Assembly (NCBI GenBank): GCA_973895155.1 | Contig: OZ316893.1 | Location: 27,352,210-27,416,209, forward strand | Length of the DNA stretch: 64,000 nt | From: Marsupella aquatica | Lineage: Eukaryota > Plantae > Marchantiophyta | Direction of reading: 5' to 3' | Shown: positions 4,040 to 46,789 of the stretch, piece by piece | Layout: every line of letters begins with the position of its first letter | How positions within the stretch are numbered: the stretch's first letter is position 1 | Made by a program: the position numbers and the translations under genes | Notes under the pieces: model-generated | What the model was told of the DNA's origin: nothing | Database searches by the model: none | The model's input: the letters and a program-made list of their open reading frames with translations, nothing else

Positions 4040-4081
4040 GTATAGCTTAGTAGTATAGGATAGTAGTTTAAATTCTCGCAT

Positions 4082-14612: not shown

Positions 14613-15311
14613 CTATTTGAAATCATGAGGTGGCACATCAGAACCCTCTGGAATGACATGGCGATTGCAGTACACCATACGCCATGGACCAATATCCCAA
14701 GTTTCTCTACCCTTAACCCCTCTCTTCAGGTGTTTGTCTGCCTCTGGTCCTTCATCTCTGCACCACGCACGAGGGCACCTACGACACTGGATAAATTCCC
14801 AGATGCCATCCCGATACTCCTTGCACACATCACAATAATGCCTTGGGCATATCAGAGCAGCGGGATGTGCATCTGAGTTCTCTGCATAAGTTATCAGAGG
14901 CAACTCGTTCGCCCTCAATATAGTCCGCAGACAACCCACATGGTAAAAGGAATAGCAATCGTCCTGTGCACACTGAATCACAAGGGGCTCATCTGTAGTG
15001 GGTTTCACGGTTCGGCCAAGTGACCCACAAGCAAAGCAACAAGCTCGGTTCTGCTGACAGAGGTCACAGAGACACTCCTTGTCCCAATCATGCCCTCTAG
15101 AAATGGCAATGCGTGTGCACTCAGGCCCATGGCCATCAGGCTCCTCAACATCCTGCCCATCAACTAAGTAATGAAAATGTCGACTACAAGGCCCATCGCA
15201 GAACAAAACAGTACCTCCCTCATCACATTCAAAACAACAGGGGGGATCCATGCGAAGGTGCTCCTTATGGGCAAACTTGGGATCCAACCAGGCAGCAGCA
15301 GCCCGTGCCAT
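14613..15311 (-). CDS. EDM2/NSD-type tandem PHD-finger module (~232 aa) carried by CACTA-1
   Basis: CFECDEGGTVLFCDGPCSRHFH; CCFACGSLG; IQCAQDDCYSFYHVGC; CPRHYCDVC; QCRRCPRAW; WD...RMVYCNRHVI...PPHDF. The order matches the plant EDM2 PHD region as I recall it. Confidence 0.85.
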   Translation of the reverse strand: MARAAAAWLDPKFAHKEHLRMDPPCCFECDEGGTVLFCDGPCSRHFHYLVDGQDVEEPDGHGPECTRIAISRGHDWDKECLCDLCQQNRACCFACGSLGRTVKPTTDEPLVIQCAQDDCYSFYHVGCLRTILRANELPLITYAENSDAHPAALICPRHYCDVCKEYRDGIWEFIQCRRCPRAWCRDEGPEADKHLKRGVKGRETWDIGPWRMVYCNRHVIPEGSDVPPHDFK

Positions 15312-18300: not shown

Positions 18301-19099
18301 GCGACGATAAACCCTTCGACAAACTACGCAAAGGAGCAGGAAAACCTCAACATTCGATAAGCTCTTCGCAAAGTTCTTTGTGAAACAGGGAATCCAATGA
18401 GCCGGGTGCTTCCAGCAGTTCCTGCCAGTGACAAAGGCAAGGGCCGGGGGATTGAGGGGATGACATGTGGACGATGGAGATTGCATCCAATTGCGACTAT
18501 GAACGGGAAACTTCAACGGTCCAAGTGAAGGGGTTACTAGGGCCTTATTCCCCCCATAAAGGACTTAATTAAGTTTGTGATGTCATTAGGGAGTGGAAAA
18601 GGACTTTGCACCACCCATAACTATTTTTCTCCCCCAAAAGTGCAAAAATTACTAACACACCCTCTAGAGAAAAACAATTCCAAGAAGCCCCTTTGGGCAA
18701 TCCATCAGCCATAAAGCATCTCAAATAATTGAAATGTGTGGCTAAGTTAACAGGAGGAGTTAATTGGCAGCCTAAATGATATTTGGCGGTACCTTAACGG
18801 AGTTCTGGGCGTAATTTAGCAAAAGACATAATCTGCAATTTGGGCCCCTTTTTTCTTAACTGAAATGATGGAAACTTGGTACGGAGCAGTACAATAAATC
18901 ATCTAAATGAGAACTTACTCCAGAATATCTAACATAGATATAGTCAAGTGTGTTTGGTATACTAAGGGACCAAAAGCTATCGTGACTCTTTTGCCCTCAT
19001 GACATATATGCAATGGTATGACCCCCATAAAGTGAAGTCTGCCCATATAATGACTCCAACATGGAAACAAAGTAACATAGACCAGATTAGGGTCCAGGG

Positions 19100-21260
19100 T
19101 TGAAGTGTACCCTATCCCGCACCATGTGGAGTGGGTAGCATCCCTAATGGCGGGCTACAATCATAAATATTGCCAATCACCCCCAGGAGGCCCCAAAGAG
19201 TCATATTCTCCATGGCATGCATGACTGCAATAGTGACATCATGAATGACTTATTTTTGTGTCATTTGAATGAATGACATCTCCCGGCACTCCCTAAATGA
19301 CAAAAACCTTTAGTCATGCATAGTAATGACTCAAGATCCCTTACAAATGACCAAATGGGAGTGGTTTGCACTCCTTTGGACAAATGACTCCAAAGTCATA
19401 CAACTTGGGAGTGTTTTGCCCAAAGTTGGGTGATGCCCTTCCATGATGCAAAATGTGTGCTTTAAAAAGTGTTGTGGAGGCCAAGTGGCATAACTAGTGG
19501 CTCAGGGTGTACAAATACCCCATCCGCACCATGTGGAGTGGGTAGCATCCCTAATGGCCGGCTAAGATCATGTATATTGCGAATAAGCCCCAAAGGCCCC
19601 AAGGAGTCATATTGTCCATGGCATGCTTGACTGCCACATTGACATCATCAATGACTCATATTTGTGTCATTTGCTTAAATGACACCCCTCGGCACTCCAC
19701 AAATGACAAAAACCTTCAATCACATGCACAAATGACTCAAGATCCCTTACAAATGACCAAATGGGAGTGGTTTGCACTCCTTTGGACAAATGACTCCAAA
19801 GTCATACAACTTGGGAGTGTTTTGCCCAAAGTTGGGTGATGCCGTTCCGGTCAATTGCAAGCTTGAGGGGGGCAAAAAGGATATCCAATTTCTTCACCAA
19901 AAGGATTCTAGTCCTTCCCAATTTACAAGGGGTGGACAAGGTGTTACACCAAATGGCTAGGATTAGTTTGTTGAGATTGGATGGTGAGATCTTGCATGCC
20001 AAGTCTTTGGAAGTGTGTCCAGGCTTTTAGGAAGTCCCAATCTTCTTGGAAGTGTGCACAACAATTTTGGAAGTGTGTCAAACCTTTATGGAAGTGGTGT
20101 TCAACTAAATCTTTATGATCTTTGAGTCCTTTTTCTCTCCTTTTTGAGCTAATCCTTTTTGCATCCTTTTGCCCCCCTCAATCTTGCAATTGACCTTCCA
20201 TGATGCAAAATGTGTGCTTTAAAAAGTGTTGTGGAGGCCAAGTGGCATAACTAGTGGCTTAGGGTGTACAAGTACCCCATCCCGCACCATGTGGAGTGGG
20301 TAGCATCCCTAATGGCCGGCTACGATCACGTATATTGCGAATAAGCCCCCAAAGGCCCCCAGGAGTCATATTGTCCATGGCATGCTTGACTGCCGCATTG
20401 ACATCATCAATGACTCATATTTGTGTCATTTGCTTAAATGACACCCCTCAGCACTCCACAAATGACAAAAACCTTTAGTCAAGTGCACAAATGACTCTAT
20501 ATCCCTTGCAAATGACAAAATGCGAGTGGTTTGCACCCCTTTGGGCAAATGACTCCAAAGTCATACAACTTGGGAGTGTTTTGCCCAAAGTTGGGCCACG
20601 CCCTTCCAAGGTGAAAAAATTGGGTCATAAAAACTATTGCGAGGCCAAATTGAGATAACTAGTGGCCCAGAGTTTAGGTGTACCCTACCCCGCACCATGT
20701 GGAGTGGGTAGCATCCCTAATGCTGGGCTACAATCATGGATATAGCCAATTGACCCCCAGAGGCCCCAAAGAGTCATATTGTCCATGGCATGCATGACTG
20801 CAACAATGACATCATGAATGACCCATTTTTGTGTCATTTACATGAATGATGTCTCCCAGCACTTCCTAAATGACACAAACCCTTAGTCACGTGCACAAAT
20901 GACTCTAGATCCCTTGCCAATGACTCACAATAGTGGTTTGCACCCCTTTGGGCAAATGACTCCAAAGTCATACAACTTGGGAGTGTTTTGCCCAAAGTTG
21001 GGTGATGCCCTTCCATGATGCAAAAGGTGTGTTTTAAAAAGTGTTGTGGAGGCCAAATGGCATAACCAGTGGCCCAGGTTTGTCAAGTACCCTATCCCGC
21101 ACCATGTGAAGTGGGTATCATCCTTAATGGCCGGCCCCTATCACCAATGGGGTCAATCAGCCACCAAAGGGTCTTAAGAGTCATATTCTGCATGGCATAC
21201 ATGACCACAACATTGACATCCCAAATGGCATTTGCATAAATGACATCTAGCGGCACTTGT
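19100..21260. repeat. Five tandem ~410-bp subterminal repeats of CACTA-1
   Basis: Marker ccgcaccatgtggagtgggtagcatccctaatg recurs at ~19117, 19524, 20282, 20690 and 21097. Confidence 0.92.
19849..20195. mobile_element. 347-bp MITE with ~33-bp TIRs (GGTCAATTGCAAG.TTGAGGGGGGCAAAA) and 4-bp TSD TTCC
   Basis: TIRs read at both ends; TTCC at 19845-19848 and 20196-20199. Sibling repeat copies show the empty site gatgcccttccatgatgc. Confidence 0.92.
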
Positions 21261-22292
21261 CAAATGACTAGAAAGTTGAGTGAGAGCAAAAATGATTGGG
21301 AATCCTTTGCAAATAACATGAATAATATATTGGAAAAAATGACATGAGCAAATATAGGCATGTAGTATCTAAATTCTAAACCTTAAACCCTAGACCTATG
21401 CCCGAGAGTGTTATTTGGCAACCTTGCATGCCCCCATATATACTCCAACATGTGAAATGTGAATACAGCTTAAGGAATGTAAACACTTCAGGAGTCCTTG
21501 GCATATATAGGAAAGATGTAATAAATGGGTGCAAGTATATATAAATATACATACTTATTAGAGATTATCAAGCCTTTAAGTTGTACATCAATTTAATGAT
21601 GAGACTCACAACAAAAGAAGGCTTGTTAGGTCTCTAAATGTATTTCAAATCTAATATGTGAGTGCCACTAGTCTTTATATATACTACCATACGTTTTGGA
21701 TGACTAATCATACCCTAAACCCTAAAACATATACTAAACCATAAACCTCAAAATAGTCATATGTTGTTTATCATGTCATTTATCACTTTTGGTTTAAATG
21801 ACTACTAACATTTTTAAACACTGATATTTGCATATTTGATTTATTAGTCATTAGTCACCGTCGTCTGAAATGACTTCCCATATGTGAAACACTGATATGA
21901 CAGAGTTTTTGTTAATTGTGTCATTCACAAAGACTGTCCAAAATGACTACAACTCATGATTGCTGTCATTATAGCAGTCAAAGTCATTTGGCTCATTGGT
22001 TTAAATGACACTATTACAAGTATTAGTCATTTTTTGCACCCCGTCATTTTGGACAGTCATTTCAATGTCATTTATGTCATGTCATTTACATATTTTGTCA
22101 TTTGAGCACATAAGTCATATGTGTCATAGTCATAAAAGGCCCCATTTTCTACTAGTGCAAGGCTTTCTATTAATGATTGAGAACCTTGATAAACATATCT
22201 CTATTTGAGGTTTGAAATGCAATTGGCGATACATGTATCGGATGTAGCATTCCCAACAACATTCCTACCTATCTGCACTTTTCCAACTCTAA

Positions 22293-24782
22293 CTAGTCAC
22301 AGTCATCTGCATCAATGATTTCCGTGTCGAGCATTGCTGCTTGGATGATTCGCTTTGTTTGTACTGGAAGCGTGTTGTTTGAGAGCAGTGCAAAATTATA
22401 TGCATAAATTGCAGTTTCTGAGAGGCACAATGTGTCCTCAAGTAACTTGTTAGAGGATGCAGCTTTTTCAGGGTAATATTGACCTTCCATAGCAGACCCT
22501 TCTTGAGAATCCATTGTATACCATACAATTTTGATGTTCTCTGGAACATCTTGTACTTTGGATAGAATATCTATGACTTTTGCCATCCAAAATGGTCTGC
22601 TGTTTGGATCCCTATATGCAGCCACGCAAATCATTGCATATTTAGTGTTCACTTCAAGATCTTTGAAGTCTCCCTCAACTGCTTTCTTCTTCCTTGTTCC
22701 AGAGTACATGACTGTTGTTGCACCTGCAATTTTATCTAGCAAGGCTGGCTCTATTTGTGGGGGAAGTGCATTTCTTGGAGTCTCTACTCCAATATTTGAT
22801 TTTGGCCACGTCCAATCAAAAACCCATTGTCCTGCCTTCAAGTGGTGTTTAATCACTTCTTTCTGGTTGTCAAAGAAACGGAGCCACCAAAGTTTATCCT
22901 CATCATCAAAGTAATTGAATCCATCTTCAATTGATTTGCGATATTTCTCCAGGACTGCAACATGGTTGCAGAGAAGATGCTCGTCTCCATTGCCTCCGTC
23001 ATCATGTTCATCATTCTCCACTGTTGCTCCGGTTGTAGATTTCAATGCCATTTGTGCAGCAACCCACATGGTAGATGTGGGGATGTATCTAAGGAACTCC
23101 ACTGCTTCTCCCCAACTTTGAGTGCTAGAAAGATGCTTTGCATGAACCAAAGTCGAAGTTCCATTCTCTCCTACAACCCTCTTCATCCTAAATTGCTTTT
23201 GACCACTAATACCATGTAGAGGACACAAAACATGCCCAATACCTCCCATGTCATTGGGTTGGTCTTTATCCGACACAAACTTCTTGAAATCAGCAACCTC
23301 TTCAACAAAAATTATCTCAGCCTTTGGATTGTACGAATCCTTGAGAATGTCTGCAAGACTATCCACCCGAAAAGCTTTTCGCTTATTTAATTTTGAGGAG
23401 AACTTGCTGAACATTTGGTCAATCTGATCATGGGTATGTCCAACCAAAAGAAAACCAACTTTGATCTTTTGGAAAACCCTCATCTCAACAAGCATATTCA
23501 AATATGCCATGAGAAATTTATTTTTATTTTCTCGAGGTGTATTATCAAGTTGTAGATACAACACTGGAGGGAGTGGACCTTCCCAACTATTTAAAATATG
23601 TTGGATCACATGCACTGTCAAGTTGGTGTCATTGTGAATGTTTGGATAATTCAAAAACACTTTTGATGTCAAATGTCCATTGAACACCAAACAACCCACC
23701 ACATGTACCGGAATAAAGTACTTCTCGTCCATGTTTTTGGGGCACCTAGTGAAATGTGGCAACTTAGTCTTTTTTTGATCCATACCATCAATGCAGATCC
23801 CCAAATATTTTTCTGGACTCTTATAGCACTTGCTTCGGTGCTTTGCTAATTTCTCCCTCTCAACTCCTTGTGCTTTCCGATGTTGGTTCAAAAGTGTTGA
23901 ATATTTTCCTGTCAAATGAACGTCAATGTTTTTGTCAATAATAACCGCATCGCCAAACCAAACAAGTAAATAATGTAGTACTTAACATCAATTCTTTACT
24001 TATTTAAAGGTAGACACAACTTACGTTTTTCTGCTTCAAGTACTGCTTTGTCGCGAAGTGCTTTGAACTCTGTGCAAGGACCGCATGTGGAGAAGCGACT
24101 CTTTTTTGGAATACGCACCCTGGGGAACTCTTTGTTCCAGATGCGAACAAACCAAGAATATGTGATCTCGGTTTCCTTCCGCACCATAGTATCAGTCTTG
24201 AAAGCATCAAATACTTCAGCTTTCGTCCAATTGTCTGGTAAGTGGAAGATGTCCTTGTTTGGAAGACTTTCAACATTTGACATGAAAAACTCATTCAACC
24301 ATTGAACTAGTGAAAGATGAGTAACCGATTTTTCCTTGCAAAATGTGTCATTTTGAATACGAGAAAACGTATTCCTTGAGATTCTCTACAACCGATTATT
24401 TCCAACGAAAAATAATTTCTTGAAACCTTCTCGACAAAAAGATCTCCCGTCAACAATGTAACCGGTTGGACCACCGTGCCCACTTTTCAAACAGCCCCTT
24501 AGAAGTATGTTCTTCTCGGTCGATGATAAGCCATAATAGAAGGTCCGGTGTTTTGTCACTAAATCTAGACCAAAATATCTCAAACACAAATTATCACAAC
24601 ATGGGTACTTAAAAACTTCTTTCATTTTTTTTTGTCTTTAAATTTTGATTTGTAACATTATCTTTCCTCACAAGCTTGTCTCTCACTTTCTTGCTAAGCT
24701 CCTTTTGTTTCTCCATACTGTGAAATCCATGGAGTGAATTTTCACTCTCTTGTCTCTTTGCAACTTCCAGAATAGAGCCATT
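22293..24782 (-). pseudogene. DUF7869/Sola-like RNase-H-fold transposase A, catalytic 3' part
   Basis: PCCDNLC; SFCREGF; FSTCGPC; CIDGMDQ; LYLQLDNTPRENKN; FLLVGHTHDQIDQMFS; C-terminal PFWMAKV..IKIVWY. Frameshift in the T-run ~24630, stop at 24386, intron 24024-23909. Confidence 0.8.
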
Positions 24783-25465
24783 CACTACAACACTACCCAC
24801 ACCTTTTGCGAACTTGAAAGCATCGCAAACAACAAAGGAAATCAAAAAACAAAACTCGCCTTTGCGAAGTATCGCGCATCGCAATAGAATCGCAAACTGC
24901 GAAGCCCAAAGGTTCGCATCCGGTCTTTCGCAAGACCTTCGCAACGCCTTCGCAACTTGCGACACTAATAGAATCGCAAAGGACTCACATTTAAGCGACT
25001 CCGTGGGCGTCGCGAGAGGCTTGCGATAATAATCAAGCAGTTAAATATTTGCAATCCCAGAAGTTTGGTAATCGGTTTGCGATATTAAGTTAATGGTAGT
25101 TATGCCATGAACATGGCTTCGCATTTTTGTGAACGTATGTGGTTTGCATAATGTTTGCGATACCTTCAATATGGTAAATATGCGAATTGGGTTGTTCGCA
25201 TAGGTTTCGCAAGATGTCTTGAGGCTAGGGTTTAGATTTAGAGTTTTGAATTATGGTTGGGGTCTTGTCGTCCAACACGGAGAGTGAGGTCTGAATCAAA
25301 ATTGCTTTATAGAAAATTGATAGGTACACAAAAATTAGGGTTTCCTAAACCCTAAACCCTAGATGGGTGTCATATGACAAGCTAGGTCCCTATAAGACTA
25401 CCCATATCAAAACTATATACTACACTAAGTAAATGGGCATCCCATAGGCACTACACCACCAAGCT

Positions 25466-27443
25466 CTAGAATGGGGTCCTCCTACTCCTTGTCGCCGGCC
25501 TCTTCCCCTTGTCCCTCTTGCGACGATCCGGACGTGGCACAGGAGGTGGTGCTGGCTGCTCCTCCACATCTGGTTCCTCCTCGTCCTCGTCCTCATCCTC
25601 TTCCTCCCCCTCCTGCTGGGAAACTCCTCCTACTGGTCCAGATCCACTACTCCCTCCTACCTTGGGCCCCTTTGTCGTGGTCCCCTCATTGTTCTCATCG
25701 GTGCTACTGGTATCACTGGCATCCTCATCATCCTGTTTGCACAGCACAACGCCAAATTGGTTTAGGTTTACGGAATGAAAAGATAAGTGGATTGGGTGGG
25801 AAAAACTGAAGGGGATACATGCACTTACAATCGCCAACTCTGCGTCAACCAAGTCAAAGAGATGTTTGGCTCCATGCGCAGCTCCTATCTCCATCTCTTT
25901 TGCTGTTATCTTCCTGCGGTACCTCTTATACTACCACAACCAAACATTCCAAAACCAAAATAGATCGAGGTTAATATGCTATAAACCCAAGAAAAATGCA
26001 TGGAGGTGCTAATAGGGTGCCCCCTAACACAAAACTGGGCTCAATAACCCTTAGCGGTTTTTTTAAAACATAATACACACTTGCGAAACTCCCCACTTCG
26101 CAAATTCAAATAAATTGGCTGTTTGCGAAGTAGTTTGCGAAGCGAGTTATTTCGCAATAGCTTCGCATTTACAACTTTAAAAAAATGCCATGATAGACTT
26201 TGCGAAACATTTGCGAAGCAACCCGCATCGCAAAAGCTTCGCAAACTCTGTTTTTAAAAAATTCCGAGAAATCTCTAAGGCACGCAATGTGTCAGGGTGA
26301 CCTAAAGTACAAGGCAGGCCGTAAGAAAGAAACAAGAGGTATGCAGGGGGGGCATTGCAGGTTTGGATAGCAATTGAAAGCAAGGAAACAGAAGCAGGGG
26401 AGGAGAGGAGAGGGCCCACTCACAAAGTGTGCTTTGAGGCCGGGAAGTCCACCTTGGCCCATCTTGTGCGTGGTCTTGGGCCGTTTGCTGACTCGCTCAG
26501 CTGCAAGGATGAATTTTTGGGGTGGTGCACCCACTTCATCCACAATGTGCTACATGTGAGACACTTTCTCAGCCATTGCCTTGAGCTCTCGGTCGGACTT
26601 CCCGGCCTTCTGTGCCTTGGCTTCCATCTCCTTCCAGAAGAGAAGGTTCCTGGCAGCTCTCATCTGCACCTCCACTTTGTAAAAGGCATTCCACACGTCC
26701 TCAGTGAATTGCAGTGGCCTCCTCACGTTTTTGTACTCCTCCAAGTTTGCCAGGTAGGCCCTTACCTTCTTCCTATCATGGTACCGTGCTTGAGACATTG
26801 AATTGGAAATTCTATCTGCAAGCCACTGTTCATCAATCTCTGCTCCATTTCGAAATGAATCTTTGATTTGACTCATTACTTTCTTCTGGTCTGCCTTGCT
26901 GAGTTTCCCCCACTCAACTCCTCGTGCAAAATTGGAGCGCACCATAAGCCTGATAGTGCTCTTTGCCCCGGTGTAGGCCAGTTCAGTAGGAATGCCTTCG
27001 ATCAAGGCAATCATAGGCAGCTTCTTCCTCTCTTCCTCCTTCTTTCGCTGCTCCTCCCGCTGTGCTCTTATCTCATCTTGTTCCTCTCTCCTCCTCTTCT
27101 TTTCTAGGGCAACAGGTGAGACTACTCCTGCCTTGGCCCTCTCCTCCTTCTTACGCTTCTTCTCTCTTGCCTTCTGTTGAGCTGCACTCCTTTGCTCCTC
27201 CTCCCTTGCAATGTTCCCTGCATCTACTCCCGTTTGCAAGGCTTGCCCAAGGATTGCACTCAAAGAAGCAATCCCTGCTGGTGTAGTCAAATCTAAGTGG
27301 CTCAACTGTGCTGCATTGAGGTGCTCAGCCATCAAATCGGTCCATCGATTCCTCTCCTGCTCCCCATTGCCTTCATTCCCATTGCCACTCTCACTCACCC
27401 CTGCCCTATCACCTCCATTTGCTCCACTGGAATCCATAGCCAA
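25466..27443 (-). pseudogene. TnpA-like (Ptta/En-Spm) gene of CACTA-2, three exons, one in-frame TAG at 26550
   Basis: ORF 26550-27443 reads through the TAG into VDEVGAPP...HKMGQGGLPGLKAHF, followed by a GTGAGT donor. Further exons at ~25830-25930 and 25466-25735. Confidence 0.65.
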
Positions 27444-28728
27444 GCCACCCCCCGAGCGCGCGCGAGCTCCCTTCTCCCTCCCTACGCTTGAAATTTGTCA
27501 AATGCCGCTGAGTACGCCGCGGCCGAGTGCAAAAGTACAAGCGGGAAAGACTTGCGAAGCAACCCGTTTCGCAAGTTGCGATTCTTCTTGTTTCGCATAT
27601 AGTTTCTCAATTTTGCGAAACCATTGCGACGTGAAAGGCTTCGCAACACCTTCGCTCTCTCGCAGAAATGCTCTCGGGCTCTGTTTTTCTGAAGGTCTTG
27701 CGAAAGCAGTAGCTTCGCAAACGTCAATTCTAATTTGTGATGGTATTTGCGAAGGAAGCGGCTTCGCAAGACATTGGCAACTCGTCCTGGGGGAATGTTG
27801 GTTTCATTTGAAAGGGTTTTTTTCAAAGGTGAAGTGGACCCCTCTATACTCATATTTGGAATGTTTTTTGGCCATGTTTTGGGTGTTAGATAATAGTTGA
27901 AGGCGGGTTTGAAGGGTTAGGCAGATTTCAGGTTAATGGGTTATGTATGGTGTTGGTTTAGGCTAAGGTTTGGGTTTACATTAGTTTAGAAGAAATAATA
28001 AAGGTGTGGGATTTGGTTTACAAGAAATAAGTAAGGTTTGGTTTTAGGGTTTGGGGTTTTTAAATAGAAAGGTCTCTAGGGTTGAAGAAAGGTTTGGGTT
28101 TGTGTGTAAGTCAGATTTAGGTTTAATAGGTAGGATGCGGTTTGGGGTTGAAGGTTTGGATAAGACAAAGCAAGGTTTCATGAGATTTATATTGCAGCCT
28201 TTTGGGTTTAAGAGAGGTTCATTGGGTTTATGAATCAAAAGGGGATTGGCATGGGTTTTGCTAACAAAGGAGGGGAATATATGATAGCTTGCAGGGTGCG
28301 GCACTTTTTGATGATTTGATACTAATGCATATGCATTGTGAGAGCCCGGGCATCTGAAAGGTAAACATTGCATGATCGGCTAAAGTGTTCCTTTCATGTA
28401 CTTAACACTTTTGGTTGCCACTATGTATAAAGGGGACATGTATATAGGGTTTTTTGTTCTTGTCTGGTCCAGATTATTGTGCTTACATATACATGGAATG
28501 GTTGCAGCTTTTCCCTCATACTTTCAGATTGGGTTCATTAATTATCTTAGAGCCACAAGAGCTATTGGCACTGCTGAGCCCGGGTCTCATAAAGGTACCT
28601 TTTTTATTGCTATGGTCATTTTGGTTTGGGTTTCTTGTCATCATTATTTGGGAACTTTGATTTATATCATTTTGTGGTATGTTTTGGTCATAACATGCCC
28701 ATTTTAATTATATCTTGTTATAGGGGAT

Positions 28729-29881
28729 ATGTCTTCATCTTCTGAAATCTCCACCACAGACTCGTCCTCCTCTGATGAAGATACACCACCTCCACCTCAA
28801 CATCACACGACCGCACCTCCTCCTCGCGGTCCACCCCGTCAACTTTGTGAATGTTCCAGATGTGTGGGTCAGGTTTCCCAAAAATCTTACATATGTGCCC
28901 AACATATTGAGAGATATGGGCGTTGTGGACGTCATACGGCAGGGGCTTCTTCATCTCATATGGTAAGTGTTATGCCTTAGTTTTCCTACCCTATTCCCAT
29001 TACTCAATGGTTGAAGGTTTGCAATTTCACACCTACTTTTGTTTGTTTTGGTTTCGGTGGAATAGGTATCCAATAGGCCTAGACCTGCGGCACAAGCACC
29101 CTATGTCCCATCACAAGGTGTTCTAGATGCTATAGGCAATGCATTCTCAAAAGCCTTGGGTCTAGCGGCAAGGCCCACCAGTCCTAGGGAAGTTGGGGTT
29201 GAGGCTATTGTCCCAAGAGGGAGAAAGCGTTCCAAGAGGCGGGCCCGAGGGGATACTGATTTGTACAAGGCAGTGGTTACGGGTCGGTGGGGTGATTGTG
29301 AGTTCACTGGCAGATGTGTCCCTATCATCAAGGACTGGGATCCTGAGACTCTTGGTTTGCCACAACAGCTTTCCTACGGTGCGGAGGTAGAGGTTTGGGG
29401 TAGACGTTGGGTTATCAAACCTTCCACACTTGGGGATAGACATGGCTATGGAGTTTTTGCCTGTGAGGACATCATTGTGGACGCCGAGAGTGGTAGAGGT
29501 GGACGCGGCCGAGAGGGGCCTACTTTGTTTCCTTATGGTGGACCCATCTACAAGAGAAGACATTGGAACATGATCCTTGCACAACACCCTGAGTGGAAGA
29601 CTTATGCATTGGACATGGATACTTTTGATGGAAACACTAGAAGGTATAGTGAGCAGCGTGTCATAGATGGGGACCCCATACGGACTGGGAATATTGCTGG
29701 TTTCATAAACAGTACCGTGGGGACTCGCCCTAAGCATAGGCAAAATTGTGAGTGGGTTTTCATTGAGGGTCCTCCGCCAGCACCTTATGGCCAGACATAT
29801 CATCATGACCATTGCCTAGTTGTAGCAACAAGGACCATTAACTCAGGGGATGAGTTATTTACTCACTATGAGTGGGATTAG
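28729..29881 (+). CDS. Zn-finger + SET-domain protein, join(28729-28962, 29066-29881), 349 aa
   Basis: SET motifs: KPSTL..HGYGVFACEDI, PYGG, IDG, GNIAGFINS, NCEW, VVATRTINSGDELFTHY. Phase-0 GTAAGT...ATAG intron. No stops. Confidence 0.85.
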
Positions 29882-32800
29882 GGTTAAGTTAAGGGTCATA
29901 GGTGGTATGTTGCATATCAAAGGGCACTACATATGGCCTTTGGCCACATTTTGTATTTGCACCACAACCAATATTATTTCATTTTTGCACACCCCTAGCC
30001 CATTTTTGTGTGTGTTCTCTTTGCAATATAACTTTCAATTGTTTGCTTTGTTTTTAGAATGTGCGACCCTCTCCAAATATGTTACCACGGAGATTGAGAG
30101 CAACATATCGAGAAATGGGTATGCCAGAAGAAGGACATGGATCAGAGTCACACTCCTCATCAAGTGCTAGTGGAAGCAGTAACCCTGATGAAGAGGTACC
30201 TCGGATGGATGAACAAGTAACTGATGACCAGGATAGAGCCATGGATGACTTTATGGTTGATTGGTTTGGTGCCGACAACCTTGGTGATGACCTTCCCAAT
30301 GAAGGGCAGGTGCCCCCCAATGATCCACGCCCAAGGCATACCCCTGAGGGACAACGCCAATGGGAAGAAGCAGAGGAACATGCCCGAACACCTATCTATG
30401 AGGGTGCTCGTTTGAGTCGTCTTTCAGCCATCTTGGGGTTGATGAACCTACAGGCCAAACACAAGGCAAGCAATGCCTTGTTATCTGATATGTTTGCACT
30501 TTGCCATGACCTTATGTTGCCCACTGAGAATGTGTTGCCAGCAACTTGGAAGGAGGCAAAGAGTGTTCTCTCATCTATTGGCATGGAATATCATATTGTT
30601 CATGCATGTGTGAATGATTGCATGTTATTTCATGGGGCCAATGCAAACATGACACAATGTACAACATGTGATGAGCCTCGCTATGACCCCAACATGCTAA
30701 CAAAGAAGGTGCCAAGGAAGGCTGTTCGTTGGTTTCCCATCATTCCTCGGTTGTTGCACATGTATCGGTGTTCTGACTTGGCAGAGTTGATGGTATGGCA
30801 TAAGACTCATCGATCAGAGTCTGGTGTCATGCGGTTGCCAGTTGACTCCCCTGCTCACAAACATATTGAGGCAACATGGCCAGACTTTGCACATGATCCT
30901 CGCCATGTGAGGCTAGGATTGGCATCTGATGGAGTTAGCCCTCATTCACTTGGAGGAAAGGGGCAACCTACATCAGTTTGGCCTGTGGTTGTCATGAATT
31001 ATAACCTCCCACCATGGCTATCCATGAAGAAGGGGTTCCTTTTATTGTCTTTGATTATCCCAGGTCCAAAAAAGGTGAAGAACTTTGACACTTACTTGGC
31101 ACTATTGGTTGGAGAACTTCAAAAATTATGGAATGGAGTGTGGGCATATGATGGCAGGAAAATTACAGGAGGTTTTCCACGTGTCTTTCAATTGAGAGGG
31201 ATCATTTGTTGGACAATGCATGACTATCCTGGTAAGATGACTTCCATGCCATTTGCAACCCTTCAATAATGTGTAGTTCCTATTGATGTTTCTCATGTGA
31301 CAACCCTAACATAAAGTTTGCATGGTTTGATTTCTTCTATGTAAGCAGGGTTTGGTTTTGTCTCTGGATTGCAAACTCAGGGGTACAAAGCTTGCTCTAC
31401 TTGTGGCCCAAGCTTAGAGGACATGGCCACATATTGTTCATGGATTAGAAAGATTGTTTATATTGGGCATACAAAGTTTCTTCCCATGGGGCATGAGATG
31501 AGGTTTGACCCACTTCTATTCTCCTCCTTTGACATGCCATTTGGTGATGAGCGTGAAATTCCTGATGCAACAAGTTTTGCACATTGGAAGTCACTAGCTA
31601 ATAGGGTGGCAGACCCAAATGATTCCTTCACCTTTGATAGGACAGGTTTGACCAGGTGGAGTATACTAGCCACTTTGCCCTATTGGTCTGAGTTGAAGAT
31701 CCGCCATCTTTTAGACCCCATGCACATAGAGGGAAATGTGGGGAAGGCTTTGATAAAGCATTTTTATGGGGAGAAGGACACTAATTTTAGGGAGGCATGC
31801 GAGGAGATGGAAATGCATCCAGATGTTTGGGTGACAATTGATCCTATCACAGGTGTGGAGAATCGTCCTTCTGCTCCTTGGGTGTTGAGTGTTGGCCAAA
31901 GACGTGAATTTCGGAACCGTATAGGAGAGATGCGGTTTCCTACAGGCTATGGTGCCAACCTTCGAAAAGCTTTTGGGATGGAGGACAATCACAAGTGGCC
32001 ACGATATCTGAAGACACATGACTATCATCGCCTATTGCAGCATATATTGCCAGTGGCAATTATAGGTATAGGGAGTGAAGAAGTGCAAGATGCCATCTGG
32101 TCATTGGGTCGTTTGTTGAGATGGATATGCTCAAAGGAGATATATGTAGAAGAGATCCCTGGGATGGAGGTATTGGCAGCTGAGGTGGTATGCAAGTTGG
32201 AGAAAGCCCTTCCTCCTTCCTTCTTTGATTGTCAGGTTCATTTACTTGTGCATCTTGTGCGGGAGGTTGCTATTGCAGGTCCAGTGCATTGTAGATGGAT
32301 GTATTGGCTTGAGCGTTACATGGCGGTGTTGAAGGCTTATGTACGTAACCGTGCACGGGTGGAGGGAAGCATAGCTACAGGATACTTGGCAGCAGAGAGT
32401 ATGTTTTATTGTAGTAACATCTTGGCCACCATTGATCCTACTTGTCCACGTACTTGGATGGAGGAAAGAGAAGAGGAGGAGGACCGTTTAACAGGTGCCA
32501 CAAAAACACGCATGTTGACATCAACAGAGTGGTCACAGTTGACAACATTTATGTTGAGTAATAGTAATATCATGGAGAAATGGAGAGAGTTTTATGAGAA
32601 TGCCAAGAGAACAAGTCAAAGAGTAAGAATTTTTCCTAAGATGCATGAGTATATGAAGCAAAAGTTGCTTGAGTTGGATGACATGGTGACACAAGGAGGA
32701 GATGTGTCCCACTTTCCTACCATCACAGATGACGTTCGGACCATTGTTCATGGCCCTTTGAGAGTGGTGACATCCAAGACGGCTATGTGGACACAAGGGA

Positions 32801-33548
32801 GACACTTCAGGTCCACTAGTACCTAACCTTTCTTCCTCTATTAATTCATGTAGACCTTATTTTGATTAGTTATTTCTATTGTTTAAAAACTTTCTATTAT
32901 CATTAATGACATCCATAACTGTAATGTTGGCTTCTATATTTATGCCATAGGCCATGTGGGTTTTGGCTATTTAGGGATGGGTGTCATATTTTGATGATTA
33001 TTACATTAATGGTATCTTTTACAGTGTAATAAAAATTTGTGGGTTTTGTTAATTTTAGGGTTTCTTCCCTTGATGAGAAGAGGGGTCGTACTTTTGATTG
33101 TGGAGTTCAAGGGGAATTTTCTCAAGACTCCAGAAGCAGCCGCCATGACAGGAACATTGTTAGAGATGTTGTGCCACACTATGGGAAGATAGAGGAGATC
33201 TTGGTGGTATCATATGACAACCATTCAAAGTTTGAGGAATATGTCTTCAAGTGCAAGTGGTTCAAAGTGAACCTTGTTGGTCAAAATTGCACTGTACTTC
33301 AAGATGAGAGTGGGTTTACACGGTTGAAGACAAGTGCCACTAGTGTTCAAGCATCTCATTGGCAAACGTCAGAACCATTTGCTTTCCCATCACACTTGGA
33401 GCAATGTTTCTACATTCCATACCCCTTAGACACCGAGTGGTCAATTGTCATCACCTATGTGCCACGTTCTCGTTCCATTGTTTCTGAGAAGCCAGATGTT
33501 ATTGTATCAGACCTAGATGACCTTGAGGCCGATGAGGACCAAGTGTGA
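28729..33548 (+). CDS. CACTA TnpD/TNP2 transposase, apparently intact: join(28729-28962, 30058-31231, 31349-32810, 33059-33548), ~1119 aa
   Basis: HACVNDCMLF; RHVRLGLASDGVSP; YNLPPWL; HDYPG; LDPMHIEGN; KTHDYH; LPPSFFD..HLLVHL; WMYWLERY; FKCKWF; EPF. All introns are GT-AG and phase-compatible (3360 nt total). Confidence 0.9.
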
Positions 33549-34509
33549 GGGACATATTTATATGCACTTGGGTCCAGCCTAGACATTTGTTCATGTTATA
33601 TTTGATTTGTTCATGTTTGGTGATATAAAAAAAAGGATTGTCTATATTTATATTTGCCATTCACTTTTGAATGAGTCATACTCATGACATATGTATTGTA
33701 TTGTTTTATTGTGATCACTTGTGAATTTTACATGCAACTTTCTATCTAACCTCTGTTGCTCAATATAACTTTATTTCCTACTTATTCCATAATTTTCATT
33801 CTCACCCTCGTGTTCCCCTCCTCCGTGGTACGTCTGTCCCTCCTCCTCCCTTCCTCTTTCTGCTCCCTCCTTCCTCTTCCATTGTACTCCCTCCCTTTTC
33901 CATCCTTCATTGTACCTCCCTCCATCCTCCCTTCCTCTTCCCTCCTGCCCCATCCATATATTGGACCATCCACCCTTTTCATTGTCTCACCTCACAATAA
34001 CCTTAATTTTTAGTTTGCGAACAATTTGCGAAGCTCACAAACTCTCACCGGACTTGCAATTTATATGAAGCTTCTCGTTTCTCAATATTTCCATACTACA
34101 CTCTTCGCAAACTTGTGATGCAAAATCAATCACAACTTTCATATTTTCAGCGTTTCGCAAATCTTCCATCCTCCGACATTCTTAAACTTGTCAAACAACT
34201 ACTATCGCAAAAAATTTTCAATCCAATATTCTTCGCAAATATTTACATGAGTTAGTTTCGGAGTCGGCGAGCGATTTTTCCGTCTTCGGAAGGTGCCTTT
34301 CCATTCGACGCATTTCGGTAAAAATTGCAAAACCACTTACTTCGCAATTTATTAGCGATATAATGCGCTTCAGCTATTATATTTGCGATAGGGATAGAAT
34401 CGCAAATTGCGATGCGGGTTGATTCACAAAATATGCAAAGCGCCGCCCATCGGAAATACAAGAGCGTCGACAAAAATACCTTCGCAAAAGTGTCAAATAT
34501 GTTGTAGTG

Positions 34510-34619: not shown

Positions 34620-37154
34620 TGTGACGGGGTCCCGCCACGGTAAGTCACCATTAGTGTCACCAGCAAGACACTTGTAAATAAATAAGCCCATAGACGCGAG
34701 TTTTTTTTAATGTTCTTTAAGTTTGTAAAGTTTTTTAAAGCATCTCGGGATAGTCGGAGACCCCAACAGTTTTGTCTAGACCCGGGTTAATTATGGGGCA
34801 AAACCTGGGGGGTTTAATTAAACCCCCATTAAATCCTTCCGCGAGTGGGCAGCGAGGAAGGGGGGCTCCGCGAGTGACCGGGCAGGGGGGCTGCGAGCCC
34901 TGCATAGGGCCGCGAGCCCGCGAGGACGTGAGCTACGGGGAAGGGGGACTCCCGCGAGTCGGGTGTCGTGCGCATAAACATCGCTACACAACAGAGTTTT
35001 GGTGGGGAGACACCCACAGGCCACGGCTTGTAGCCGATTCATCTTGGTTGGGTGGGTTGGCACCCACAGCCCATGGCCTGTGGCCTCTTGCGGTTTGGTT
35101 GCGTGGGTAGTCACCCACAGCCCACGGCCTGTGGCTGATTCATCTTCAAGAATAATCGAACTACGATTGATGCCAATCAAACACACAATCTTGTCTGACG
35201 CGATCACACACTTATGTCAAGCCAAACGCACCTTGCGCCTCAAGGAGGTGATCAAGGCCAAGGAGGGGACCATTCATGAGAAGGTTAAGCTTCTCCAAGC
35301 AGCTCACGTAGAGATCTCCAACTTGAAGGGAGCCTTGTCCACCAAGGCCAAGGAAGCAGAAGAGGTGGGAGCGTTGAGACAAGCATTGGCCAAAGAGAAG
35401 CAGAATTCTGGAGAAGTGGTGGAGTGGAGAAACCAGGTGGGAGCACTACGGAGTCAGGTGGCCGCCTTTGAGACACGAGCGATGAGGAGTGAGGCCTTGA
35501 GTCTGGGGAAACGGAAGAGCCCCGACACACCTAGCTCCACACTTTCCCCGGATTTGATCTCCCAGGCTATTGAGATGGTGGTGAAGGAGGTTAGTGGGAA
35601 GTATGGGCCCTTGTTGGATGGAGTCAAGAAGAGTCAGGAGAAGAGCAAGGGCTTGGAGAAGAAGCTCCGGGAGGTACGGAAATCGTTACGGGAGGCTCAG
35701 GTCAGTACGGGGATGCCACCCAGGTCTGTCACCCCCGGGACTCCCATGGCCACAGGGCAAGTTCTACCGTTGGAGTTGCGGTCCGGAGAAGAGGCTACCC
35801 TATGGAAAGACACCATTGGTGAGGGGTACATCAAGGCGTGGCAGGCCTTGGCCACTTTGAGGAAGCAAGGGAGCGGCAGCACGAAGAGTACCCCGGTAAA
35901 GAAGAAGAAAAGTGAGGTGGCACTCACTCCCGTGAGTGATGAAGAGGAGGCCCACTCACGGGGCACAAGCCGGGGCACCGAGAGTGAAGAAGAGGAGGAG
36001 TAGATAGTCGTACGGATGTGGTTGTACGGCCTCTGGATTTCCAAATTTTTTGTGAGGGGTCACTCACGGGCTTGTTGGAAAGAGCTCGCGGAGCTGATTC
36101 CAACAAGAGGCGGCGCTCCTCAAACGGAGCCAGGATGAGCAAGTTATGGCCCGGCGAAATTGTGTTTTCGTGATACGGAAACGACCATAACTCAGGCGTC
36201 CGATGTCCGTTGCGAGTGCGGCTGAGTGATTCGGGATCAAGAGGAGAAGGGCTATCCAAGGGTGAGCTCAAAAGTACAATTGATAGGGAACCTAGTTTCG
36301 GCCATTGTGGGGTGCCTTGCAATTTCAGGGTTCACTGTGTACAGTTGGGGCACCGTCGAAGGCACCGTCGGCCCCTTGTTTATGGTTTAGGGTTTTAGCA
36401 GCATGTGTGTGCCGCATGCCTTTTTAGTTTAGGGATTTCTTAGTGCAGGGTTTTAGCGGCGCCGCTAGGGTAGCCGCCATCGTTGTGACCCCATGAGGGG
36501 TGCTTTGGTGTGGTTTTTTTTTGGTATTTAGGGGGAGAGCCCCGAAGTAGTGAGGGGGAACTCAGCGTAGTACTTGGAGTAGCTTTTGTGAGTAGCGCAC
36601 CGATTAGGAGAAGTTCAAGCCAGAGTAGTGAGGTGGAGAACGTAGGACTTGTCCCCGGGAGGCAGGAGTTGGGCAGACGGCAGGAGGCCGGGTTGTCCTT
36701 GCATGTGTTACGGGAAACACCAAGAGATATGGATTTGGCTTGAGGTTCCAATATTTTGTGTGTCACTTGTTGTTGCTTGTGTTGTTTGTTTTCCTCCCCT
36801 AGTGCGTGTGGTCGGTGTCGTTGTGGAAACATTTGCCCTTGTCACTAGTGTTCAAATCTTATTGTAAATGTTGGTATGCTTGCCCAAGAGAGGAGGGGGG
36901 TGGTGACAGCACTCACCCGGTGGGCATGAGTTGTAGATGGTAGGACCAGTCCCTTGGACTTGATCAAAAACGGAGAGACCAGTCGGTAGACTTGATCAAA
37001 AAGTACACTTCCGGGAGCGGAATCAAACATACTCATCCTTAGGTGTGGAAATCCTCCAAATAGCGTCCCTCCACGACCCCGTAATACGATACCAACGGTT
37101 TAAGCAAGGAAAAGTACGGTTTGCACGTATTAATCGTTGGATAGGCAAGTGACA
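34620..37154 (+). mobile_element. Solo LTR (Gypsy-type), 2535 bp
   Basis: TG...CA ends; 5-bp TSD TGATA at 34615-34619 and 37155-37159. Homologous blocks shared with the LTR at 41284-43354. Confidence 0.9.
34999..36003 (+). CDS. Coiled-coil ORF inside the solo LTR
   Basis: Long open frame with heptad-like K/E/L-rich stretch, KKKK and acidic tail; first ATG ~35170. Confidence 0.45.
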   Translation: MVGRHPQATACSRFILVGWVGTHSPWPVASCGLVAWVVTHSPRPVADSSSRIIELRLMPIKHTILSDAITHLCQAKRTLRLKEVIKAKEGTIHEKVKLLQAAHVEISNLKGALSTKAKEAEEVGALRQALAKEKQNSGEVVEWRNQVGALRSQVAAFETRAMRSEALSLGKRKSPDTPSSTLSPDLISQAIEMVVKEVSGKYGPLLDGVKKSQEKSKGLEKKLREVRKSLREAQVSTGMPPRSVTPGTPMATGQVLPLELRSGEEATLWKDTIGEGYIKAWQALATLRKQGSGSTKSTPVKKKKSEVALTPVSDEEEAHSRGTSRGTESEEEEE

Positions 37155-38196
37155 TGATACAACTTGTGCAATGGCTTGCGACTGTCTATTTTCCTCAACA
37201 TCTTCCTCCTCACTTGACTCATCAGAAAACACTATTGGACTTCTTGGTTCTCTGTACATAATTTGGACTCCGCTAAAACTAGTGAGGCCTTGTCTAGCAA
37301 CTTGAAGACGTCTAATTGGCTGTCTAGAAACACTCCTAGTTGCAGAAGTGGGTCTGGCGGTCATCAATGGTGTGTCTTGATTGTTCCCCAAACTTGTATT
37401 GTGTACACGAGTGGCTGCCATTGGTCCATTGATTGGAGAAGCATCGAATAATCGTTGTACACATCTCCCCACTGCAATTTGATATTGCGCAGATTCTGGA
37501 CTTTGTAGTCCGTTGTCTTTCCTGTTGCTGGGAACCAGTTCTCTTTGACGCAATGCAGACGGCGATCCACGTATCGTTGTGTGTATTGTACCTTGCGTTC
37601 TCACGTCTGTCCCAAGAAATATCCTTCGCTGCACCTGTGGCAAAACTGATTCCCTCAAAGGCAATGCAAATGGCGATACACGTATTGCTGTTTGCATTCG
37701 ACCTTCTCTTCTCTCCTCTGGCACCTGTTGGAAACCGGGTTGGAAACTTGAAGCGTCAATTGGAGATCCCAATCTCGTTGCCGATACACGTATCGTCTTC
37801 TTGATTCCTTCACCATACCCAGGGATAGACGGTCTAAATTGACGTCTAGAACCTAAACCTTGGATAGAAAGCTTTTGCATCCAAGGGGAGGGAATGTTTA
37901 GGAGCCGACGTTTATCAGGTTTACTAGGTGACACATAGTAAGCCCCAGGTTCTGGTTCAGAACTTCCATCAGAATCAGAGTCCGATATTTCGGGTACACT
38001 CTGTTGAGAAACTGGGAGTAATTTGCGAATATGATTTGGCAAACATCGACGACCATGAGGACCATCATTGGGGGAGGACTCAACTGAACTGGAGGGCGAC
38101 CACTCTTTAGATATGGCTAACGTATAACTAACTCTATACTGGTGGGCATTCCTGTCACAAAATGCTCTTACGCTCAAAAAACTCAAATAGATGCAT
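37155..38196 (-). pseudogene. N-terminal part of transposase A gene (low-complexity, three internal IRVS-type repeats)
   Basis: ORF 37023-38186 continues in frame across the LTR TSD. Possible ATG at 38196 if one T is removed from a T-run. Confidence 0.7.
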
Positions 38197-39141
38197 AACT
38201 TTGTGAAACAAAATGGTGCAAAAAACTTAGTCGGCGTTGATGTATATATAGTTTTTGGTGACCCTGAGCCACGTGGCTACTTCTGACTGGTCAGCCGCTA
38301 CACGACAAAATAGATTGGGTGATTAAAAAAGGTTCAAATTAGTGTTTTAACGACAAAATTAATGTACATGTTAAGTATTTCCTCCGGGGTGGATGCAGTT
38401 TTTATTCTATTTGGGATAATGTATTGTGGGTTGCTTTAATCAGCCATTGAGACAATTTGGTTCTAGATGCGATACAAGTATCACTTTTTGCATTTTGGGG
38501 TGATTTTTTCAAATTGGTCCTGTAAAAGGTGCACATATTGTGCTTTGGAGTTATGTACCATAGTTTTGCTGATTCACAATCACTTTTCACGATGGTTAGG
38601 CGGAATGGTTACCATGATTTTGTCACTTAGTTTACTTTCTGGTTAAAAGTAGATCAACTGCGTTGAACTGTGTAGTAAATTTTGGGCAACTATGATGTAA
38701 CTTTTCAAATTGTTGATAGTAAATTTTTTGAAAGGAGAGGTTGAGCTACTTTTGGAGTATATTCTCAAATGATGAATGTGGTTTGCGATACGAGTATCGC
38801 TAGTTGCTTTCCTTTATGTGTTTGGGTTTGGAAGCAAAACTATTTTCCATGTGTACAAGTTGACGGAAAATAAGGATTTTCCATGTTGGAAACAAAGTTG
38901 AACGTTGTCAACAACAAACAGTACATTTCGAAAGTTTAAATATATATAATGAGGTAGTCTGTGGGCATTGCTCACCCCTTCAATGAAATCCCATCTACGA
39001 TACAAAAATGGAACTATTGGGATATTGCGGAATTTTGGATCGCTATTTGTGTCATTTCAACAAAATTGGCGAGAATGAAAAACACCATTCTCTATGTGCG
39101 GAAATACTTCTCAATTGGTCTGAAATCATGTTAAAGGTCTG

Positions 39142-40365
39142 ATGGCTAAGATTCCTTATGAGAAGGCAGTAGGCAATCTGATGTATTTGATGACTTGTAC
39201 TAGGCCTGACTTGGCCCTAGCGATGGGCAAGGTTAGCAGATTCATGTCAAATCCAGGGAAGGTACATTGGGAAGCTGTGAAATGGATTCTCAGGTATGTG
39301 AGGGGAACACCGGACTATGGATTACTATTTGATAACAGATCAGATAGAACGTTAGTTGGCTATGTAGATTCTGACTATGGAGGCTGTCTGGATACAAGGA
39401 GGTCTACAACTGGGTTTGTATACACTCTTGGAGGAGGATGTATCAGTTGGGAATCTACCTTGCAAAAGTGTATATCTCAGTCTACTACAGAAGCAGAGTA
39501 TGTTGCAATAGCAAAAGCAGCAAAGGAAGCAATTTGGTTGGATAAGTTGATCGCGGAGATGGGTTTAGAGCATGGAAAAATGACTCTAAACTGTGATAGT
39601 CAGAGTGCTCTTCACTTGGCTGCTAACCAGGTGATGGATAGCAGGGTGAAGCACATTGATATCAGGTACCATTTTATCAGGCAAGCAATGTCTGATAAAA
39701 CTTTTGAGCTAGTCAAGATTGATGGAAAGCTCAATCCCGCTGATGCTTTTACCAAAGTGATTCCTTTGGAGATTTTTTCAAGACACCGTGCTACTTTGCA
39801 GGTTTTGCAATTGTAGTGCAAGTAGAGTTATTTAGCAATGTGTGACTATTTGTATATGGATTACTCATTCCTGTTAGGCTACGGCTTAGTTCTAGTTAAC
39901 CCTTAGTTAACCCTTGTGGTTTTAGGGGGAGACCTGGTTTGGTGATTGTCTAGAACTTCCCGCTGAGGATTCCATATGGTAGCATTTAGTCTAGTCCCCA
40001 AGACAAGAGTCAAGGGGGAGTTTGTTAGATATTGCTCTAGTCTTGTGACTCATGAGCTAACCACAGTTAGTCTAACTCTGGTTAGGACTTAGCTAATGTT
40101 AGCGGTAGTGCTAGTGTGCATATAGCCAGGGCTGATGCTAGACCCTGGTGGAACTTAGGCTCATTGTTATAGAGCTAGTTGAGAGATAGGGAGAGCTTGT
40201 GATGTGGATGCTTGGTATGGCCGGTCGGCCTAGAGTGCAGTAAAGCTCTTGTGTGTTCCGTGGATGTAGCCTCATGTGGAGGTGAACCACGTATCTCTCT
40301 GTGTCGACTATTGTGCATTGGATGGTTCATGGGCTTGCCATTACGAATGTCGTCTATGCTCAACA
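39142..40365 (+). mobile_element. 5'-truncated Ty1/Copia retrotransposon: RT end + RNase H (39142-39816), PPT, 3' LTR 40023-40365
   Basis: PYEKAVGNLMYLMTCTRPDLA; GYVDSDYGG; STTEAEYVA; CDSQSA; KHIDIRYHFIR; NPADAFTK. PPT caagggggag; TGTT...AACA LTR. Confidence 0.92.
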
Positions 40366-40499
40366 AAGATTTATATTCTTGACAATGTTATATAATTCCT
40401 ATCATCAGCCATTAAGATGTAGGTATGGAAAAGAATTTGATACAAAAAGATGTCATTGTGTAAAGGAGGTTGCACTAGTACATATTAAGTTGATTTCCA

Positions 40500-46463: not shown

Positions 46464-46789
46464 GACTGATGAGTAAAATCACTATTACCAACAAACTCGG
46501 TCAGATTGCTTTGTAGACGCACACACTCGTGGGACAAAACGCAGACAGGGAAGGAACGTCGACAATCTGTCCGCGTTTAAACACGCTGAATCGCCAATTC
46601 TAGCTCAAAGAATCAACTACGGATAATTCGCGTACAAATCAACTACTTTACTTCGAAGGATAAGTGCAATCGCAATTTTCTGGTTTCGGAAGCCGAGTGT
46701 TGTGAGAGACTTGATCGCACACTTGTATATTCCAAGTGAGCACCGGAACACTTATAGGGATAGAGGGGTGGGCCGTATGGCGCTCGGGC

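Follow-up and report, generated by a model that had tools for sequence, protein, structure and literature searches.

The window analysed here, 64 kb of contig OZ316893.1 from the liverwort Marsupella aquatica, contains a 9,727-bp CACTA transposon (24783-34509) whose transposase gene includes an exon resembling a SET domain. The element is a true member of the CACTA group. Its termini are of the CACTA/EnSpm type, with CACTACAACA at 24783 and the complement ending at 34509 (TGTTGTAGTG); the terminal inverted repeats (TIRs) match at 10 of 15 bases, the first 10 all matching, and a duplicated target site (TSD) of 3 bp, ATT, flanks the element on both sides. CACTACAACA also opens sister loci L003, L006 and L030. 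Subterminal repeats are present as the motif TTGCGA/TCGCAA, for which 45 of the 63 matches in the window fall within the element (15% of the window), in clusters at both ends and on either side of the main exon of a second gene, ORF2; L030 has the same subterminal pattern.

On the + strand the order of features is a finger exon of 78 codons, an intron of 103 nucleotides, a SET open reading frame (ORF) of 271 codons, a spacer of 176 nucleotides and three transposase exons (Table 1). ORF2 has a 50-60% identical counterpart at the same place in sister loci and, judged from its position, may be a TnpA-like accessory gene; it matched no Pfam or Atlas family, nor the ORF2 of CACTA-1, a SET-less CACTA element in the same window. 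Where three sister loci encode Gln, the copy in the window carries an in-frame TAG (26550-26552, minus strand), so this copy may rely on others for ORF2, and the description of the element as intact in the original prediction holds for the transposase and SET but not for ORF2. The downstream exons match Pfam Transposase_21, DUF4218 and DUF4216 and include D369, D467 and E791, which we take to be the catalytic triad of the transposase, with C485-x2-C488 and H767-x3-H771 giving a DDE arrangement with C(2)C and H(3-4)H motifs. These motifs are defined for CACTA transposases as lying past the second D and ahead of the E (PMC12730594).

The finger exon (M...LCECSRCVGQVSQKSYICAQHIERYG...SSSHM) follows an acceptor at 28722-23, has its ATG at 28729 and ends on a codon boundary with GTAAGT from 28963, a phase-0 donor (G^GTAAGT). 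As had been proposed from the open frames, this one donor is in phase 0 with both the SET and the transposase acceptors (AG at 29064-65 and 30056-57, respectively). Joined to SET, the finger gives a protein of 349 amino acids with no stops; joined to 30058-31231, 31349-32810 and 33059-33548, it gives one of 1119 amino acids with no internal stops. The first in-frame Met of the SET exon is at codon 168, so that the start of the coding sequence must come from another exon upstream, for which the finger exon is the candidate within reach. We propose, with a probability of roughly 0.68, that this SET-fold exon inside a transposase gene allows two proteins, finger-SET and finger-transposase, to be produced from one transcription unit.

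Table 1. Features of the CACTA element, in window coordinates (^ marks a splice point in the text)
Feature	Position	Strand	Basis
Left subterminal TTGCGA/TCGCAA cluster	24806-25207		Motif count
ORF2, multi-exon, head-to-head with the transposase gene	25466-27437	-	Homologous ORF in sister loci
Further TTGCGA/TCGCAA clusters	26081-26239, 27552-27764, 34015-34482		Motif count
Candidate non-coding 5' exon a; donor GTAAAC at 28361	28324-28360 (start not defined)	+	Sister alignment
Candidate non-coding 5' exon b; acceptor CAG 28525-27 or TAG 28548-50, donor GTACCT at 28595	28528-28594	+	Sister alignment
First coding exon: Ser/Pro-rich leader and C-x-C-x2-C-x13-H finger	28729-28962	+	Sequence, translation, sister loci
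SET exon, 271 codons and TAG	29066-29881	+	Pfam, AlphaFold2, structure comparison
T-rich spacer: putative 3' untranslated region for finger-SET, also forming the 3' end of the long intron	29882-30057	+	Composition, sister comparison
Transposase (TnpD) exon starting N-V-R-P-S-P-N-M, first two acidic motifs	30058-31231	+	Pfam, translation
Transposase exon with C(2)C, H(3)H and LERYM motifs (DUF4218)	31349-32810	+	Pfam, translation
Last transposase exon (DUF4216), with stop	33059-33548	+	Pfam, translation

The finger shares its spacing, C-x-C-x2-C-x13-H-x3-YGR, with the N-terminus of the CACTA-1 transposase (E=2e-5), whose own finger matches Pfam Transpos_assoc, and a profile built from 10 SET-family fingers only scored that N-terminus at 33.1 bits, against at most 6.2 bits in 1,200 shuffled sequences. 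On these scores the finger is the transposase's own N-terminal domain, homologous to that of a SET-less CACTA transposase, which agrees with the original prediction. Two conserved non-coding exons probably lie further upstream, because the alignment of sister families extends into this region and is interrupted at the splice sites predicted there: the region of the first (28324-28363) matches sister locus L002 at 87.5%, the sister contigs breaking at 28363, and that of the second (28499-28583) at 80%, the contigs breaking at 28597 and resuming at 28721. The placing of SET in intron 1 is therefore correct for the coding sequence and probably not for the transcript.

The SET exon comprises a linker with a basic stretch, a family-specific N-terminal flank of about 45 residues and a SET core ending ELFTHYEWD. 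Pfam SET (PF00856) is its only domain match (E=6.1e-6, above the curated cut-off). An AlphaFold2 model of the 205-residue core, built on a 34-row alignment, has a predicted local distance difference test score (pLDDT) of 92.5 and a predicted template modelling score of 0.87, and supersedes a first model of all 271 residues (pLDDT 70) based on a shallower alignment. In structural comparison the top 43 rows are all SET/PR proteins; Set1 (Z 12.3, root mean square deviation 2.6, 124 residues aligned), EZH2, SET7/9, SET8, NSD2 and LegAS4 match at Z 11-12 and are about tied. By its modelled fold, exon 29066-29881 encodes a SET-fold protein. Among 39 diverse relatives G127 and G129 are each conserved in 38, Y162 and E263 in all 39, N215 in 33 and Y268 in 36, so that the GxG cofactor motif, the Asn of RxxNH and ELxxxY with its terminal Tyr are present. 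The canonical RxxNH is not, as its Arg is replaced by Gly in 36/39 and its His by Ser in 35/39 (GFINS for RFINH in the window); this substitution, the minimal size of the domain and the lack of pre- and post-SET Cys clusters had all been read correctly at the outset.

With respect to origin, the host histone methyltransferase subfamilies (Set1/MLL, E(z), SUVH, ASH, ATXR5 and SET8) show 12-27% identity and tied Z scores, and no named host SET gene is among the SET-family matches. None of 15 pattern matches in viral contigs was confirmed as a close SET relative, viral SET folds matching at 12-22% identity only, and none of 28 candidates from prokaryote genomes was a close relative, in a scan for which the diverse SET alignment was too loose. 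The SET domain appears from these comparisons to belong to no named host subfamily and to form a separate SET lineage; with no close prokaryotic relative found, a bacterial origin does not follow.

The SET ORF has 42 relatives in a library clustered at 90%, the named ones being from Sphagnum species, Calypogeia fissa and Riccia sorocarpa, and the family falls into 96 clusters at 50% identity; the nearest named sequence is from Calypogeia fissa (84% over 201 columns). The expectation that the exon would be conserved in sister elements was borne out, as Sphagnum-type and Riccia elements have the same order of finger, SET and transposase, and Calypogeia has finger-SET. Among distant members (33-46% identity), P0052, P0059, P0075, P0092 and P0135 begin with the finger, and P0043, P0080, P0090, P0129, P0135 and P0139 continue into the transposase. 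Two further distant members from Calypogeia fissa, P0116 and P0125, have no finger and may sit in other elements or be domesticated.

Within 38 metagenome (peat) loci, the finger exon lies upstream in 13 of the 16 with room for it and a transposase exon downstream in 28 of 29; the loci lacking an expected neighbour hold only a partial SET exon, beside unrelated DNA. The GT of the finger donor is kept in all 14 sister loci that hold this exon, the AG of the SET acceptor in 12/14, and an AG directly before codon 1 of the transposase in 25/28. These counts weigh less in favour of our proposal than they seem to, for most of the loci belong to a single family as near-copies (nucleotide identity about 95%), and together they amount to about three independent comparisons; the real test is between three families, namely that of the window, the Sphagnum-type family and L002. 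All three retain the finger donor and the SET acceptor in phase 0, together with TAG^AAT at the acceptor of the transposase exon (L002 ends 6 bases past this acceptor), while identity is 0.52-0.59 in the introns (shuffled means 0.48-0.51) versus 0.74-0.83 in the exons. The spacer (GC 0.37, T 0.40), which ends in the transposase acceptor TTTTTAG, shows 0.52-0.53 identity to the sister families versus shuffled means of 0.48, and a canonical AATAAA was not found downstream of the stop codon of SET.

Between families the ratio of nonsynonymous to synonymous substitution rates (dN/dS) is 0.14-0.23 for the SET core (6 comparisons, dS about 0.8), 0.15-0.19 for the finger and 0.08-0.13 for the transposase, whereas within the Sphagnum-type family the SET dN/dS is 0.9-1.1, the copies drifting. 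These ratios indicate purifying selection on the SET core. That a SET protein is made and selected thus seems very probable, and the original idea that the element encodes it by means of a shared exon is strengthened by this selection, by the splice sites kept in three families and by the lack of a strong, conserved in-frame donor within SET, so that alternative splicing of a shared exon is the likely arrangement. As a separate observation, dS to the sister families is 0.77-0.84 in the SET core versus 1.1-2.1 in the transposase exons, which may reflect extra constraint on the nucleotide sequence of the SET exon, or recombination.

In a transposase tree, a 100/99 branch separates the seven SET-linked transposases from CACTA-1 and four other transposases, which is compatible with a single capture of SET; a search for long transposase relatives returned one bryophyte protein among five. 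In the SET tree the window, Calypogeia fissa, Sphagnum and L002 sequences form a shallow clade (100/98), and the SETs of Riccia, also a liverwort, lie far away. Horizontal transfer of SET-bearing elements between mosses and liverworts is possible on this topology.

In the mechanism that we propose, one ancestral element would have captured a compact SET domain in an intron of its finger-transposase gene. A single promoter facing away from ORF2 would drive the pre-mRNA. Were the near acceptor at 29065 chosen, the SET exon would end in its stop, polyadenylation would follow within the spacer and finger-SET would result; were the far acceptor at 30057 chosen, the SET exon would be skipped within an intron of 1,095 nucleotides and finger-transposase would result. 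Finger-SET could enter the nucleus by way of the basic stretch in its linker and would methylate lysines, most likely of histones at copies of its own family, keeping the family expressed or mobile. Its recruitment would depend more probably on protein contacts of the finger, with the transposase or ORF2, than on direct reading of DNA, which we judge the weakest step of the mechanism because the DNA-binding domain of plant Spm is reported on TnpA-like proteins. The suggestion that the shared finger targets the enzyme to the element itself lacks direct support, the DNA-binding domain being reported on a separate TnpA-like protein (bioRxiv 10.64898/2026.08.24.746577); complexes of TnpA with TnpD have been predicted (PMC13547354).

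A number of observations tell against parts of this proposal, and they are considered here with the alternatives to which they lend weight. The first group concerns function. From its motifs finger-SET is a predicted lysine methyltransferase and probably catalytically active, while the chance that histones are its substrate is about even. The structural matches favour none of the H3K4, H3K27, H4K20 and other enzymes over the rest, so that no substrate follows from them. By sequence, the best match of the family profile in the PDB is Legionella LegAS4/RomA (E=1.2e-4), whose motif YINFS is also without the His; the narrow profile A1 had no PDB match at E<=1. RomA is reported to methylate H3K14 (PMC10653858), and loss of the His need not abolish activity. 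The same report describes the Arg of R-x-x-N, which is mostly Gly here, as an active-site residue of RomA, and the RomA SET domain alone as binding S-adenosylmethionine poorly without the C-terminal domain. The SET protein of the element ends three residues after its last Tyr, and with so short a C-terminal flank its activity may need a partner.

The main functional alternative keeps the splicing model and differs only in the substrate: finger-SET would act on the transposition machinery, either by methylating the transposase or ORF2 or as a non-catalytic binder or repressor that competes through the shared finger. The atypical motif and minimal C-terminal flank fit such a role, as does the fact that no histone-specific relative stands out, and in the P element splicing is reported to give rise to repressor isoforms (PMC4158355). 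Conservation of GxG, the Asn and the terminal Tyr at 25-45% identity nevertheless argues for catalysis, and among proteins of solved structure the closest by sequence is a histone methyltransferase, so that we regard a role on the machinery as a minority possibility, though one to be taken seriously.

The second group of observations concerns splicing. In all 28 Sphagnum and Calypogeia gene models with this finger, finger and SET meet at one common junction (these models are predictions, mostly retrieved by SET searches), and none of the 28, nor any of 7 in a search with the finger, joins the finger directly to a transposase exon. The profile of SET-family fingers did not detect 3 angiosperm and 1 metagenomic CACTA transposases above shuffled sequences. 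Neither exact joint, 28962^29066 or 28962^30058, is among those listed from contigs of five runs of undefined kind, which cover introns and exons alike and give no evidence on expression. A joint at 28968-29097 that had been flagged as GT..AG was rejected as a splice, since it belongs to a sister family with a divergent intron. The finger-SET junction is present in two S. fallax gene models, for which the annotation is reported to mix RNA-based and ab initio models (PMC9946827), and these models are weak support for that reason. In a Logan contig of 2,141 bases (P0059) finger and SET form one continuous ORF, either as a spliced RNA contig or as an intron-less relative.

It may be, then, that only SET uses the finger and that the transposase is produced from a non-coding 5' exon spliced to 30058, or from an internal promoter, starting at the Met of its codon 8. 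The window family and the Sphagnum-type family both have that Met, positions 28361 and 28595 offer candidate donors upstream, and the gene models attach the finger to SET throughout. A finger-less transposase would, however, lack what appears to be its own N-terminal domain. Codons 1-5 ahead of the Met are conserved in frame (NVRPS or NIRPS), with synonymous changes at Arg and Pro, four Riccia models (P0080, P0135, P0139 and P0187) have Ala at the Met-8 position, and all three families have the acceptor in phase 0 relative to the finger donor. We consider this alternative improbable.

Lower still stands a single finger-SET-transposase fusion of the SETMAR kind, which would use a splice donor late in the SET exon. 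Eleven automatic gene models do run from SET into the transposase (P0028, P0043, P0080, P0090, P0096, P0129, P0135, P0139, P0174, P0184 and P0187), yet they leave SET at many different points, mostly before the last Tyr, as expected of a predictor seeking any donor for an orphan acceptor. Nor is a strong phase-0 donor common to the three families: on a donor score table that was not trained, which lessens its force, the finger donor scores 6.1 versus 1.8 for the best phase-0 donor within the SET ORF, and none of the four phase-0 GTs shared by the three families exceeds 1.4. Across families the stop codon immediately following Y-E/G-W-x is retained, and a fusion is accordingly hard to sustain. 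CACTA elements often capture pieces of genes and many copies of this SET are decaying, so the exon might be taken for a passively captured host-gene fragment without a role for the element, a view that is largely refuted by the between-family dN/dS of about 0.2, the 96 clusters with conserved motifs, the same position of SET in moss and liverwort elements and the failure of any named host SET gene to appear among the matches.

The components of the two-protein model have precedents. SET genes are known from the HarbingerS and the Phytophthora MuDR families (Kojima & Jurka 2014, Repbase Reports, as cited in PMC12730594), which resemble the present element as DNA transposons with a SET-domain gene of their own; these are of other superfamilies and another host kingdom, with SET described as an incorporated or accessory gene, whereas here SET is an exon inside a land-plant CACTA transposase gene and apparently shares its first coding exon. 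Red-algal Plavaka elements, of the EnSpm/CACTA lineage and so of the same broad superfamily, carry PAG2, and SET genes captured by Helitrons are described alongside; the element-borne SET is proposed there to modulate chromatin (bioRxiv 10.1101/2025.02.11.637652). PAG2 is a separate accessory gene in which an N6-adenine methylase is fused to SET, within a three-gene cassette, and no shared exon is described in the accessible part of that preprint; the exon in the window has PF00856 only and is internal to the transposase gene. In maize En/Spm and Arabidopsis EN/SPM3 one gene is reported to yield both TnpA and TnpD through alternative splicing (PMC13547354; bioRxiv 10.64898/2026.08.24.746577), and these elements are alike in that a CACTA unit gives a transposase and a second protein, here as judged by sequence comparison alone. 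Their second product is the helix-turn-helix DNA-binding TnpA, and anti-silencing activity is reported for Spm accessory proteins; in the present element it would be an enzyme-fold SET, with ORF2 a separate head-to-head gene. SETMAR/Metnase (PMC8616336) likewise joins SET and transposase sequence by splicing, but is described as a domesticated gene of the host whose single protein fuses SET with a mariner transposase, rather than as a multi-copy mobile family with alternative products. RomA/LegAS4 has the highest identity listed in structural alignment (27%) and shares the His-less N-x-S motif; the similarity is weak, its Z is tied with those of eukaryotic enzymes, and RomA is reported to have the Arg and to need ankyrin repeats. 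Both transposon-borne SET genes and En/Spm alternative splicing are thus already known, and their apparent combination in a land-plant CACTA element was not found: the literature covered, which left Repbase, most subscription journals and bioRxiv supplements outside its scope, held no report of SET as an alternative last exon on the first coding exon of a land-plant CACTA transposase, and SET-bearing bryophyte EnSpm families could be listed in those sources.

Elsewhere in the window, a second CACTA element of 16.6 kb (5520-22157; TSD CAA, TIR 13/15) has a stop-riddled transposase, together with a PHD-finger ORF (14613-15467, minus strand; PHD_NSD, E=4.7e-9) and a small Cys/His ORF (13943-14434, minus strand), so that both CACTA elements of the window carry chromatin-type genes, SET in one and PHD in the other. 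An ORF at 60283-62562 (minus strand) has an N6/N4 DNA methylase domain (PF01555, E=1.3e-7) and adjoins one that is ParB-like by eye and has no Pfam match; the pair recalls the accessory genes for a methylase and ParB in red-algal Plavaka elements, and part of this block recurs in inverted form (96-99%) at a distance of 54 kb, within 2402-5458. DUF7869 ORFs with transposase-like acidic motifs (22293-23981 and 53849-54742, both minus strand) probably represent another DNA-transposon group. To the right of the element, 34978-41272 contains retroelement-like remains with a weak integrase core match (40286-40939), and 45654-46478 is a 2-oxoglutarate-Fe(II) dioxygenase ORF. Tandem arrays occupy 19096-21227, 52056-52363 and 56500-58675, with periods of about 406, 22, 66 and 34 bp.

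The plant anti-silencing factors VANC and TnpA are reported to be sequence-specific binders that lower DNA methylation. It is conceivable, if doubtful, that finger-SET performs an anti-silencing function on its own family. A bryophyte CACTA clade might, on the same tentative footing, write its own histone mark and so provide land plants with a transposon-encoded histone writer, the finger docking the enzyme on the clade's own copies against host silencing. The further details of this view are no firmer, namely a compact separate SET family that is faintly RomA-like, a choice of transcript between writing chromatin and transposing, and a possible horizontal spread between mosses and liverworts. 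CACTA elements are reported to make up 6.8% of the Sphagnum genome (PMC9946827). In the accounts accessible to us, transposon-borne SET genes have so far been described from sequence alone; a stand-alone protein of 349 amino acids in a multi-copy peat-moss and liverwort family renders the writing of histone marks by a transposon directly testable. The sharing of an exon would tie the output of enzyme and transposase to one splice choice, a built-in regulatory switch if the model is true.

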